Shown piece by piece: positions 26,986 through 30,002 of a stretch of DNA of 64,000 nt. Within the stretch, counting starts at the first letter, position 1, and each line of letters starts with the position of its first letter. The stretch is from NCBI GenBank assembly GCA_963843375.1, contig CAWJKT010000004.1:416001-480000 (forward strand). Direction: 5' to 3'. The DNA is from an uncultured Pseudomonadota bacterium. Its GTDB lineage: Bacteria; Oederibacteriota; Muellerivitia; Muellerivitales; Muellerivitaceae. The notes beneath the pieces are model-generated. The model was not told the DNA's origin. It ran no database searches and saw nothing but the letters and a program-made list of their open reading frames with translations. The position numbers were made by a program, and so were the translations under genes.

Positions 26986-27570
26986 ATGTATCCGACCAAA
27001 GGTGTTTTAGCCGAAAAAGAAGCGATGGAGAAACCTATTTATCCTTTCAAACAGGATTCGAACGTAGAAGGCGGCAAAGGAAGGTCCATATACCCAACCA
27101 AAAATAGCCTTCCCGAAAGCGTCAGAATTCAAATTACAACGCTGTTGCAGGAACGCCTCGTCGACTCGATCGACCTGACACTTCAAGCCAAACAAGCCCA
27201 TTGGAACGTGAAGGGGCCCAACTTCATCGCTTTACATGAACTATTTGATAAAGTCGCAGAAGACGCAGAAACCTATGTGGATCTGATCGCGGAAAGAATT
27301 ATACAACTGGGCGGGGTCGCCGTGGGAACGCGGGGTCCGGTGGGAAAAAATTCAACACTGCCCGAATATCCGGTGACCATTTCCAGCGGCAAAGAGCATG
27401 TAGCGGCTATGTCCCATGCTTTGGCTTACTTTGGGGAATCGGTCCGTAAGGCCATCGGTCAAGCCACAGAGATAAACGATGCAGGTACTGCGGACATCCT
27501 CACGCAGATTTCACGAGCGGCGGATAAATTTTTGTGGTTCGTGGAAGCCCATGGCCAAGCTGCCCATTGA
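26986..27570 (+). CDS. dps: DNA protection during starvation protein
   Basis: KQAHWNVKGPNFIALHELFD, DLIAERI, TADILT, DKFLWFVEAH. Confidence 0.93.
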   Translation: MYPTKGVLAEKEAMEKPIYPFKQDSNVEGGKGRSIYPTKNSLPESVRIQITTLLQERLVDSIDLTLQAKQAHWNVKGPNFIALHELFDKVAEDAETYVDLIAERIIQLGGVAVGTRGPVGKNSTLPEYPVTISSGKEHVAAMSHALAYFGESVRKAIGQATEINDAGTADILTQISRAADKFLWFVEAHGQAAH

Positions 27571-27591
27571 TCAGGTGCGCACATTTCCGAA

Positions 27592-27607
27592 CGGCACGTT
27601 CCTTGCC
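27592..27607 (+). promoter_or_regulatory. sigma54 promoter (IS-interrupted lipoprotein gene)
   Basis: CGGCACGTTCCTTGCC, close to TGGCAC-N5-TTGC consensus. Confidence 0.75.
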
Positions 27608-27821
27608 TTAACCTTGTCTTGTTGATGCAGTCGAAAGGGCTGGCCTGAACCAAGAGCCAGCGCTTTACTTTGAGTTGGAGGTATTGAATGAAGTTAAGAA
27701 ATCTAGGTTTTTTATCGCTTTTGTTGGTGTTGTTTTCAACGTTTGGGTAGTGACTCATTTTGAATTCTTCATTGGCTTTTAAGAGCTTTTGCTTCAATCC
27801 TGCTCGCTGTATAATTCTCAC

Positions 27822-28067
27822 ATGCCAAGAGGACCACAAGGACAACAACGACCTGCTGACGTGATTGGAGCCGCCGTCATGGTGGCGAAAATAGCCACGG
27901 GTCAAATCATAGACTCAAAGCCGCTTGAAGGGTTGGAGTATGCCCAACGTGGTGGCCGTTTAGGTGGACGTAACCGAGCCAAACAGTTATCAGCCAAAAA
28001 ACGAACCGCAATTGCCAAGAAAGCCGCAAAAGCACGCTGGAATAAGAAGCCAAAACGTCACACGTAG
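27822..28067 (+). CDS. Small basic IS-associated protein (putative nucleic-acid binding)
   Basis: MPRGPQGQQRPADVIGAAVMVAKIATG...GGRLGGRNRAKQLSAKKRTAIAKKAAKARW; TATAAT 6 nt before ATG. Confidence 0.8.
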   Translation: MPRGPQGQQRPADVIGAAVMVAKIATGQIIDSKPLEGLEYAQRGGRLGGRNRAKQLSAKKRTAIAKKAAKARWNKKPKRHT

Positions 28068-28253
28068 CCATTAGGCCCATGATTGCACAGATAAGCGCTT
28101 TTCCTTAACTTTCATAACCGATAAATTAACTCCTAAACTCGTAAAAATAATCAGAAATAAGGCCTTTTACGTCCATTTTTGGCCCTTAATTTTATTGTCT
28201 TTATTTGGGTTTTGTTGATAATTGCGGATTAGGAGGTTTAAAGAGATGAAAAG

Positions 28254-28359
28254 AGCTAGATAGCCGTATCTAGCTGAGATGCGGCGACAAAAAGAAGGGG
28301 GAAGGTGAAACCGACTTCGCGAGAAGGACACCAACCCCCACTCAGCTACAAACTGAGTG
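28254..28359. ncRNA. Putative structured RNA inside the IS (strand unresolved)
   Basis: Three adjacent hairpins plus an alternative 8-bp helix TAGCTGAG/CTCAGCTA. Confidence 0.45.
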
Positions 28360-28471
28360 AACATTATTCCTTCCTGTTTTATTCCGCAACAATAAAATTT
28401 TTTAATTTTCTTTTCATTCATAAATCCCTTTTTTCATTAAGGTTTTAATCATAATTACAAAATGAACTATT

Positions 28472-28503
28472 TGCTTGACACTCAAGCATAAAATATTTAT
28501 ACT
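28472..28503 (+). promoter_or_regulatory. sigma70 promoter of transposase with palindromic operator over -35
   Basis: TTGACA (28475-80)-N17-TATACT (28498-503); TGCTTGA-cac-TCAAGCA palindrome 28472-28488. Confidence 0.8.
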
Positions 28504-28509
28504 ATGCCA

Positions 28510-29346
28510 ATGAACAAATTGCCTTTAGAAAAACGAATCCAAATTATCCAAATGCTCTGCGAGGGTTCTTCGTTGCGGTCCATTTCTAGGGTTGCGGATG
28601 TTTCATTCAACACCGTTTTAAAAATGGTAGTTACGGCAGGGCAAGCCTGTTCAGCCTATCACGATGCCCAGGTTAAGGGCATAACCAGCAAGCGGGTGCA
28701 ATGCGATGAAATTTGGTCGTTTTGCTATGCCAAACAGAAACAAGCCATACACCTTAAAAATCCAAATGCCGGTGATGTTTGGACCTGGACGGCCATAGAC
28801 GCCGACACGAAGTTAATTATTAGCTACATGGTAGGGAATAGGGACTCTGATTCGGCCATCTTACTCATGGACGATCTGCGGGGAAGGTTAGAAAACAGGG
28901 TTCAATTAACCACGGACGGCCATCATGCTTATTTAGACGCTGTAGAAGGGGCTTTTGGGGGAAATATAGATTATGCCCAATTGATTAAGATTTATGGCCC
29001 TTCTTCCGAAGCTGTCAAGGGTCGTTATAGCCCTGCCGAATGCACAGGAGCCCGTAAAACCCCAATTACTGGGAAGCCAGATAATGACCACATCAGCACG
29101 TCATACGTCGAGAGGCAAAACCTTAATATTCGCATGGGAATGAGGCGTTTTACCCGCTTAACTAACGCCTTCTCAAAGAAAATTGAAAATCATTGCTACG
29201 CTTTGGCCTTATATTTCATGTTTTATAACTTCGTGCGGATTCATACGACCCTAAAAGTAAGCCCTGCTATGGCTTCCGGTGTAACCAATAAACTTTGGGA
29301 AATGAAGGATTTAGCCACCATGATTGATGAATATTCGGTAAGTTAA
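28510..29346 (+). CDS. IS1-family DDE transposase (alternative start 28504)
   Basis: N-terminal HTH EGSSLRSISR; VQCDEIWSF, WTWTAIDADTKL, TTDG, TSYVERQN...RRFTRLTNAFSKK. Confidence 0.93.
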   Translation: MNKLPLEKRIQIIQMLCEGSSLRSISRVADVSFNTVLKMVVTAGQACSAYHDAQVKGITSKRVQCDEIWSFCYAKQKQAIHLKNPNAGDVWTWTAIDADTKLIISYMVGNRDSDSAILLMDDLRGRLENRVQLTTDGHHAYLDAVEGAFGGNIDYAQLIKIYGPSSEAVKGRYSPAECTGARKTPITGKPDNDHISTSYVERQNLNIRMGMRRFTRLTNAFSKKIENHCYALALYFMFYNFVRIHTTLKVSPAMASGVTNKLWEMKDLATMIDEYSVS

Positions 29347-29347
29347 A

Positions 29348-29527
29348 ATGCACTTCATCCATGATGTTTTGGTTTATTTGATAATAATTATGATTGTGGT
29401 TGGAGGTTATGGGACAAGTTCAGCGAGCCCAAAAAGAGCTAAAATATATACATTGCTGTTTGGATTGGGGTTTTTAGGTTTATTTGTGGAAACAATCTGG
29501 AATGCCTTTAAGGTGCTTTTTAAATAA
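29348..29527 (+). CDS. 59-aa two-TM passenger protein inside IS, not in ORF track
   Basis: MHFIHDVLVYLIIIMIVVGGYG...IYTLLFGLGFLGLFVETIWNAFKVLFK*; fills the gap between tnp stop and right IR. Confidence 0.55.
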   Translation: MHFIHDVLVYLIIIMIVVGGYGTSSASPKRAKIYTLLFGLGFLGLFVETIWNAFKVLFK

Positions 29528-29759
29528 CCCCAAATTCAAAATGAGTCACTACCAACGTTTGGAATGGGTTGCTATCCCTATCATCGTGGACCTGGAGTCG
29601 ACGTGACGGTTCACGACAACCGGTGGCATTATGACCATGATTATGACGATGGTTGGCGCGCGAACCATCCGTGGCATGCGGACCGGAATGACTGGGATCA
29701 TTGATCCCTGACGAAAAGGGAACGCTTTTGTTCCTGAAAAACGCAATGGTTTTGATCCG

Positions 29760-29792
29760 AACGCTCAACCCAGAGGGTTGGGCGTTTTTTTT
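29760..29792 (+). terminator. Intrinsic terminator after the lipoprotein gene
   Basis: AACGCTCAACC-CAGAG-GGTTGGGCGTT followed by T run. Confidence 0.75.
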
Positions 29793-29837
29793 GTCTTGCA
29801 GGAAGATGTTTCTGGAGAACGGGTCCAATTTGAAAGA

Positions 29838-29871
29838 AATCAAAACGGGAATTAAGAAGCTCATTTTGATC
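29838..29871. promoter_or_regulatory. Bipartite enhancer motif, copy 4
   Basis: AATCAAAACGGGA-N8-GCTCATTTTGATC. Confidence 0.72.
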
Positions 29872-29912
29872 GCTCTAATGACTGTGGTCCTTGGGATTAG
29901 GAAGGGGTTTAC

Positions 29913-29928
29913 GGGCCCATTTCTTGCT
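29913..29928 (+). promoter_or_regulatory. sigma54 promoter (sodC operon)
   Basis: GGGCCCATTTCTTGCT. Confidence 0.72.
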
Positions 29929-30002
29929 CTATCTATTCAAGTTGCCGACCAGCATTCCGTTGGTTTTAGCCGGTACCTGTTGTTCAAATGAACGGATCAT
30001 TG

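Follow-up and report, generated by a model that had tools for sequence, protein, structure and literature searches.

An IS1-family insertion sequence in the stretch of DNA analysed here (64,000 nucleotides; the window) carries, upstream of its transposase gene, a structured module that recurs in two further IS1-like elements of the same phylum, in the genomes G052 and G003, where it was found by covariance-model and pattern searches. A sigma70-like promoter, a Shine-Dalgarno (SD) sequence, an ATG-initiated mini-ORF, a hairpin (P2), an A-rich linker and a long hairpin (P3) follow one another in this order in all three copies, and P3 has undergone compensatory changes among them. We tentatively read the module as a conserved regulatory leader or small RNA of the insertion sequence that would be made from the plus (transposase) strand and led by an upstream ORF (uORF), and we hold this reading to be possible rather than probable.

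Results

An IS1-type element with a variable cargo slot

The initial annotation had placed the structured region inside an insertion sequence, and the 1808-bp element is now delimited by inverted repeats (IRs), a target-site duplication (Table 1) and an empty site: in the same-genus genome G054 the sequences that flank the element are contiguous and AACGTTTG is present once. The gene split by the insertion (27689-27745 and 29554-29704 in the window) encodes a small signal-peptide-bearing protein rich in His, Asp and Trp; in G054 this secreted-protein gene is uninterrupted. The element's own genome, which is 80% complete, contains one copy of it. DNA contigs from two sequencing runs (two studies) cover the module with no differences, and two other runs contained only diverged relatives of the transposase.

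Table 1. Features of the insertion sequence and of its structured module, in window coordinates
Feature	Position	Strand	Remarks
IS1-family insertion sequence	27746..29553	+	1808 bp; perfect 21-nt IRs
Target-site duplication AACGTTTG	left copy 27738..27745; right copy 29554-29561	.	8 bp; read from sequence
Left IR GGTAGTGACTCATTTTGAATT	27746..27766	+	21 nt; 100% complementary to right IR 29533-29553
Small basic protein gene	27822..28067	+	81 aa; near left end, conserved in related insertion sequences
Module promoter-like site	28195..28222	+	TTGTCT-16-GATAAT (9/12); 4.2 such sites expected per region (shuffles)
Shine-Dalgarno sequence	28231..28236	+	AGGAGG; 9 nt before mini-ORF ATG
Mini-ORF MKRAR*	28246..28263	+	ATG-AAA-AGA-GCT-AGA-TAG; stop TAG abuts P2
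Helix A	28254..28275 (28254-28262/28267-28275)	+	perfect 9-bp palindrome, GCCG centre; window-specific, overlaps and competes with P2
Hairpin P2	28263..28285	+	GCCGUAUCU/AGAUGCGGC; in minimum-energy fold; core GCCG...CGGCG
A-rich linker GACAAAAAGAA	28286..28296	+	on minus strand, the U-run following P3
Long hairpin P3	28297..28339	+	purine-rich 5' arm, pyrimidine-rich 3' arm; GCGA loop
Helix C	28339..28359 (28339-28345/28353-28359)	+	CACUCAG/CUGAGUG; in minimum-energy fold
Spacer, module to transposase promoter	28340..28471	+	G-poor, C/U-rich; G 3-10%, C minus G +0.05 to +0.23
Transposase promoter	28472..28503	+	TTGACA-17-TATACT (11/12); palindrome TGCTTGAcacTCAAGCA over -35
Transposase	28510..29346	+	278 aa from ATG 28510; Pfam DDE_Tnp_IS1
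Hydrophobic ORF	29348..29527	+	59 aa; between transposase stop and right IR

Members of the IS1 family, as ISfinder describes them, end in GGnnnTG and duplicate 8-9 bp of target, and IS1 itself has insA and insB' joined by a frameshift. The terminal IRs and the duplication of the element in the window, whose terminal motif is GGTAGTG, agree with the family values. Its transposase is of the IS1-type DDE class by its match to Pfam PF03400 (DDE_Tnp_IS1; E 5.9e-8, 33.6 bits against a cut-off of 24.1); the best NCBIfam match is likewise IS1 (NF033558), at 70.7 bits, below the cut-off of 100. Two ORFs with a -1 frameshift, as in classical IS1, were not found; there is a single ORF of 278/280 aa, which we take to be the single-ORF type of the family. 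The element thus shares with the IS1 family the Pfam match, the GGTAGTG ends, the 8-bp duplication and an N-terminal HTH, and differs in its single-ORF transposase, in a conserved gene for a small basic protein, in a variable cargo slot, and in the RNA module carried by three copies. Because the -10 of the transposase promoter ends one base before the first ATG of the 280-aa ORF, and because relatives align from residue 3, the second ATG (28510), the transposase mRNA is probably leaderless from that ATG. The palindrome TGCTTGAcacTCAAGCA, which looks like an operator, is kept together with the promoter in many relatives.

Scans with the transposase confirmed as relatives 557 of the 600 genome matches and 573 of the 599 metagenome matches listed, and the best 80 of each collection (53-69% identity) were analysed. 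Ends resembling those of the window element, both left and right, were found at 64 of these best 80 genome loci, and in the relatives so delimited the interval from the basic-protein gene up to the transposase promoter is filled with variable passenger genes (0.8-2 kb). The basic protein is matched in 58 of the 64 (tblastn, E <= 1.2e-4); it is rich in lysine and arginine, has the C-terminal motif ...AIAKKAAKARW, and has no Pfam or NCBIfam family, its only match being PHROG 2384 (unknown function; E 5e-5). The hydrophobic 59-aa ORF was matched by tblastn neither at E <= 1 in the 64 delimited relatives or in 12 phylum loci nor at E <= 0.1 in the 80 genome loci. As a separate matter, the cargo slot of 5 of 65 delimited insertion sequences (the 64 relatives and the window's own, which has none) contains tRNA-like genes recognized by ARAGORN (L035, L043, L047, L057 and L062). 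The one in L043 is 89 nt long and ends in CCA, and its anticodon, UUA, would decode the stop codon UAA; L062 has a second tRNA-like gene just before the transposase promoter, and tRNA-like 3' ends lie upstream of the transposases of L183 and L186. In window positions 27000-30000 ARAGORN found no tRNA or tmRNA gene.

The module was absent from the 160 genome and metagenome loci (best 80 of each) by blastn and covariance models. Scanned by model, the other 253 related loci showed no module at E up to 5 or 10; this set comprises 160 genome and metagenome loci (up to 69% identity), 43 viral-contig loci, the phylum loci L162-L187 and the pattern-hit loci L190-L200, and the 43 viral-contig transposase loci gave no model match. 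About 200 relatives of the transposase that are closer than the module-bearing ones lie in elements without the module, and blastn of the module against 80, 174 and further loci, its own genome and plasmids (distant mode) returned only itself.

Fold of the module in the window

Every string named in the initial annotation, including AGGAGG, the mini-ORF, helices A and C, the long stem, TAGCTGAG, CTCAGCTA and TTCTTTTT, was recovered where it had been placed. In agreement with its claim of a structured RNA, the 141 nt from 28225 to 28365 fold better than shuffled controls on both strands: the plus strand reaches -41.1 kcal/mol (z -4.50) and the minus strand -38.7 kcal/mol (z -3.52), values equalled by none of 200 dinucleotide shuffles in either case. 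A search with the long-stem sequence gave one match, with 0 expected. The module has no match in Rfam 15 at E up to 10, in the window or at the G052 and G003 loci, so that the label 'uncharacterised IS-encoded ncRNA', one of several offered at the outset, suits a conserved structured element that has no Rfam family. The Rfam matches that were listed fall outside the module, and the one that abuts the G052 module (L167:1722-1800, from promoter to mini-ORF ATG) reaches 21 bits against a cut-off of 49.9.

The plus-strand fold is dominated by P2, P3 and helix C, with mean pair probabilities of 0.98, 0.89 and 0.96, and helix A reaches only 0.012. The annotation had also described a switch in which TAGCTGAG (28271-28278) would pair with CTCAGCTA (28341-28348), displacing helices A and C and closing the long stem. 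The folding results contradict it: the alternative helix has a pair probability of 0.0 on the plus strand and, when forced, gives -31.7 kcal/mol, 9.4 kcal/mol worse than P2, P3 and C together (-41.1), and the combination of A, P3 and C lies at -38.4. Helix A does appear in the minus-strand fold and is flagged as terminator-like on that strand. P2 of the window is weaker on the minus strand than on the plus strand (-7.8 against -13.0 kcal/mol) because it contains a U-G pair.

Three further ideas about the module were pursued and dropped. A kink-turn-like reading of the internal loop of P3 in the window was rejected since neither G052 nor G003 conserves the apical part of this hairpin; a small protein starting within P3 (47, 19 and 45 codons) is not conserved in sequence and is inconsistent across the copies; and hopping or frameshifting from the mini-ORF lacks a conserved sequence and is likewise inconsistent across the copies.

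Two further copies of the module

The copy in G052, a genome of the host's family, was found with a single-sequence model of positions 28246-28365 (E 0.17 in 478 kb, E 0.0028 in 7.8 kb); it occupies the same slot of a related element whose transposase is 54% identical and whose basic protein is 64% identical at its C-terminus, and the homologous 231 nt fold with a z of -4.56. A model built from these two sequences then retrieved the G003 copy (E 0.66 in 475 kb, E 0.0068 in 11.7 kb), which is followed, about 150 nt downstream, by a transposase of 38% identity. Taken over the whole searched space, both E-values (0.17 and 0.66) are weak. Both copies nevertheless share the strand of the transposase and precede it by 150-231 nt, and across 243 loci (1.03 Mb) the core pattern (CGGCG, gap, GGGAARGYG, gap, CRCYWWCCC) occurs at these three places only, with a single match in the window's own genome. 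Across 99 genomes of the phylum the pattern matched in 4, against 0 for the reversed control; the fourth match, in G039, was rejected for its GC-rich coding context and its non-complementary arms. Among 401 sampled genomes of another phylum there were 5 matches against 4 for the reversed control, none of them module-like, and the matches in viral contigs (9 and 38) were all chance or ordinary plus-strand terminators after a phage gene. Other model matches were not accepted: L165/L180 is GC-rich and downstream of its transposase, L176 overlaps the transposase promoter and start, the alignments to G096 (E 0.46) and G078 (E 0.96) lack the first hairpin in genomes with no transposase match, and L108 and L137 were also set aside.

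The 5' part of the module is conserved in arrangement. By itself the promoter-like site of the window is weak evidence, no better than chance sites, and the G003 promoter, at the same relative place, is a stronger candidate (TTGACT-17-TATATT, 10/12, 0.2 expected); that of G052, likewise at this place (TTGACA-16-TATATA preceded by TGg), was recognized by eye only and was not flagged by the tool. The SD sequence and mini-ORF of the initial annotation are present in all three copies (SD AAGGAG in G052 and GGAGGTG in G003), with the SD 8-9 nt before the ATG (8 nt in G052) and the ATG 15-16 nt before the hexamer at P2 (UAGCCG in the window, CCGCCG in G052 and G003). The mini-ORFs themselves, MKRAR*, MRRGETAGF* and MPQVETAD*, have 5, 9 and 8 codons in the window, G052 and G003, respectively, and in those of G052 and G003 the TAG stop lies within the P2 loop. 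Both homologues likewise have an A-rich linker, and patches with more C than G follow P3 there as well. Since a separate transposase promoter follows the module in the window and in G052, the module need not belong to the transposase mRNA.

Some features of the copies stand apart. The ATG of the mini-ORF is in frame with the transposase start in all three elements, at distances of 264, 327 and 240 nt (28246 and 28510 in the window, 1798 and 2125 in L167 of G052, and the minus strand of L187 in G003); in this frame the interval contains two stops, both TAG, in G003 and six each in the window and G052, and the chance of a shared frame alone is about 1 in 9 to 1 in 27. Behind P3, the G052 copy has a second large hairpin (L167 1909-1995, GGUGGGGUG...CCCCACCACC), and the window is without it. 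The 1.5 kb behind the G052 transposase were searched for a right inverted repeat and yielded none, so that this element may be decayed or longer. The earlier suggestion of a role for the RNA as ligand of the basic protein is not supported; a basic-protein gene was not detected within 1.5 kb upstream of the G003 copy.

Conservation of P2 and P3

The conserved hairpin at the mini-ORF stop is P2 and not helix A. Its core, GCCG...CGGCG, is invariant in the three copies, and because CGGCG is invariant in the alignment P2 shows no covariation. P3 shows compensatory changes of the kind that the annotation had proposed to look for: in an alignment of the P3 hairpins alone, which MAFFT aligned cleanly (whole-module MAFFT alignments mis-register P3), 4 of the 11 basal pairs change on both sides, 5 are invariant and 2 are broken, only in the window (A-A). 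The basal helix pairs in 30 of 32 cells, against 48-62% when slid, and 10 of 500 shuffles reach the observed values. With the two-sequence model alignment, both-side changes are seen at 9 pairs and pairing reaches 90.9%, against 38-51% when slid, figures to be read with the alignment having been fitted to the model. The annotation was correct that helix A, the GNRA loop (GCGA) and helix C exist in the window, and none of the three is conserved in the homologues; ACUCA(G)CUAC of the helix C region is shared with G052 only, and helix C is missing from G003. These statements on conservation rest on three copies, all of one phylum.

The pattern of conservation bears on two alternatives. The region could be nothing but the coding sequence of a minus-strand ORF (28167-28421, 84 aa), which is open and has a Pfam match to Zn_ribbon_20 (E 0.013, below the cut-off). 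The compensatory changes in the stem and the homologue indels, which are not multiples of three, lead us to reject this; the ORF would cross three hairpins and a U-run, and the homologous stretch of G052 contains no ORF of at least 50 aa on either strand, hence no counterpart, so that a purely coding role seems extremely improbable. Another alternative is that the module has no function at the RNA level and is the leftover 5' end (promoter, SD and initial codons) and terminators of a lost passenger gene, or a set of insulating hairpins. In the relatives, most of which are without the module, variable passenger genes do occupy the slot that separates the transposase from the basic-protein gene, and in G052 no ORF of at least 50 aa remains in the slot. 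Against this, the transposases are only 38-54% identical, yet the elements have kept the promoter, the SD sequence and the ATG, the spacing to P2 and the cores of both hairpins, and P3 has changed in a compensatory manner; a neutral remnant should have decayed over such divergence. We therefore regard a remnant as distinctly unlikely.

The antisense strand

The plus strand gives the stabler fold of the whole module in all three copies (-41.1 against -38.7, -41.4 against -38.1 and -56.6 against -50.0 kcal/mol). Nonetheless, P3 also looks like a terminator of the antisense strand, and the A-rich linker can equally well be taken for the U-run of such a terminator. As the annotation had noted, TTCTTTTT follows the long stem on the minus strand of the window, and a U-rich run follows P3 on that strand in all three copies. 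It is thus conceivable, if somewhat unlikely, that the minus strand is the working one, with P3 and the U-run TTCTTTTTGT forming the intrinsic terminator of a short antisense RNA. Such an RNA would be initiated at a point between the transposase and P3 and would target the plus-strand leader or transposase expression, as antisense RNAs do in other insertion sequences; its length in the window would come to about 68 nt, made up of helix C', P3' and a U-tail in that order. P3 itself is about equally stable on either strand, and P3-type hairpins with a U-run serve as ordinary terminators in phage contigs. At relaxed thresholds, candidate antisense promoters can be picked by eye downstream of P3, namely TTGTTG-18-AATAAT (8/12) in the window, TTTCTA-16-TATAAT (9/12) in G003 and TTGACA-17-TATTAG in G052, and G003 has a second terminator-like hairpin on the antisense strand. 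In an IS10-type cis-antisense system, a promoter and a terminator on the antisense strand yield an RNA that covers the site where transposase translation starts; here P3 with its U-run is terminator-like, on reading, in three of three copies, candidate antisense promoters are seen at relaxed thresholds only, and the predicted RNAs do not extend to that site.

Several observations argue against the minus strand. P3 is flagged as a terminator on neither strand, owing to the tool's loop rule of 3-8 nt; none of the antisense promoters is flagged by the tool, and their unrelated distances would yield RNAs of about 68, 150 and 165 nt, which would not overlap the transposase start. An antisense RNA also leaves the conserved plus-strand promoter, SD and ATG unexplained. 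The second hairpin of G003 is an observation in its own right: opposite the transposase (L187 2407-2442), 11 pairs, 8 of them G-C, are followed by a T-run, and upstream of this structure an antisense promoter that contains a perfect TATAAT can be picked by eye, so that an antisense RNA gene of about 84 nt could lie between P3 and the transposase start of L187.

The plus strand was also considered as a classical attenuator, as first proposed. The short 5'-proximal leader ORF of that class is there, with SD and ATG in all three copies. The class further has mutually exclusive hairpins, one of them a terminator with a U-run on the same strand; here mutual exclusion is limited to A and P2 of the window, and no plus-strand hairpin with a U-run was found before the transposase, which speaks against an attenuator of the classical kind. 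A plus-strand terminator flagged in G052 (L167:1933-1947) was rejected as a 5-bp stem inside the larger hairpin behind P3, and in G003 the sole flagged site lies on the antisense strand.

Discussion

We favour, tentatively, a plus-strand regulatory RNA led by a uORF because a ribosome stopping at the mini-ORF TAG would have to open P2 and because G-poor, C-rich RNA lies behind P3. We infer RNA synthesis, translation of the mini-ORF and each regulatory step from the arrangement of these elements. Transcription from the promoter at 28195-28222 would begin a few bases ahead of a strong ribosome-binding site, and a ribosome would translate MKRAR, a peptide that is not conserved, from a start site whose position and distance to P2 are conserved, as is the TAG at or in P2. 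Given the usual ribosome footprint, a ribosome on the TAG would have to melt P2 (28263-28285), behind which the transcript would present an A-rich single strand, the stable P3 (28297-28339) and a G-poor, C/U-rich tail. Rho can load on G-poor, C-rich RNA, and could act on the C-rich RNA behind P3 in all three copies. The module might in this way set how much transcription from this internal promoter, and how much antisense transcription, reaches the transposase region, with the outcome that transposase expression would be low or coupled to translation status; P3 may additionally stop antisense transcripts.

A more far-reaching proposal, which we consider rather improbable, is that the module represents a new class of transposon-borne riboregulator, in which host ribosomes on the 5' uORF would decide whether P2 is open or closed and hence the fate of the RNA, the structured RNA gating transcription into the transposase gene or antisense transcription against it. 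In a bolder variant for a G003-type copy, TAG read-through may produce an N-terminally extended transposase.

Leader peptides control trp-type attenuators and Rho-dependent leaders such as tnaC and mgtL, and tap and repY leader peptides act in plasmid replication control together with antisense RNA. The module resembles these systems in its promoter-proximal SD, its very short ORF with the stop at or in a hairpin, the overlap of A and P2 (in the window), the G-poor, C-rich RNA downstream and a possible antisense partner. It differs in lacking a same-strand U-run terminator, conserved regulatory codons and a conserved alternative pairing; its peptides are unrelated, and the downstream gene is served by a promoter of its own in two of the three copies.

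RNAs encoded by insertion sequences (antisense, bridge and omega RNAs) are central to the working or the restraint of some transposons. IS10/Tn10 is controlled by the antisense pair RNA-IN and RNA-OUT. For IS200, a 5'UTR hairpin with an antisense RNA is described (PMC12594629). Like the RNAs of IS10 and IS200, the module is a short structured RNA of an insertion sequence beside the 5' end of the transposase gene, its hairpin could end an antisense transcript, and low transposase expression is the likely purpose. Unlike them, it has a separate plus-strand promoter, a strong SD and a mini-ORF, it lies 150-231 nt upstream of the transposase start without overlapping it, it has no sequence or Rfam similarity, and it belongs to another family, with an IS1-like DDE transposase.

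The bridge RNA of IS110 and the omega RNA of IS200-IS605 are conserved non-coding RNAs within an insertion sequence, beside the recombinase gene (PMC11208160; 10.1101/2023.03.14.532601), and the module shares this position. That the module is a guide-like RNA for the transposase in the manner of these systems is suggested by the same adjacency of a structured, element-borne RNA to a recombinase gene and by one 15-nt match of 80% between P3 (28321-28335) and the left flank (27723-27737). We consider a guide highly implausible, since duplex energies of the module with the element's ends and flanks, with the rebuilt target and with the start of the transposase gene do not surpass those of shuffles (z -2.5 to +1.5), no pairing is repeated across the three copies, a DDE element with classical IRs and an 8-bp duplication needs no guide, and most relatives are without the module. 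By comparison with bridge and omega RNAs, the module has no complementarity to ends or target, its element is of the DDE type with IRs and a target duplication, and most of its relatives lack it.

The literature that we searched holds nothing on an RNA module in IS1-family elements, which is not proof of absence from print. To our knowledge, IS1-type elements are known for control at the protein level and by frameshifting and not for a promoter-driven, uORF-led structured RNA. Should the module have no part in tuning the transposase, it would still be a small, rare and conserved RNA motif (three copies, one phylum) for RNA family libraries. If the riboregulator proposal is true, transposition in this IS1-like lineage would be tied to the translation status of the cell. 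If transposase expression is indeed tuned by the module, a new layer of control would be added to a widespread family of DDE elements, and the module would serve as a compact example, found in nature, of RNA regulation coupled to translation.
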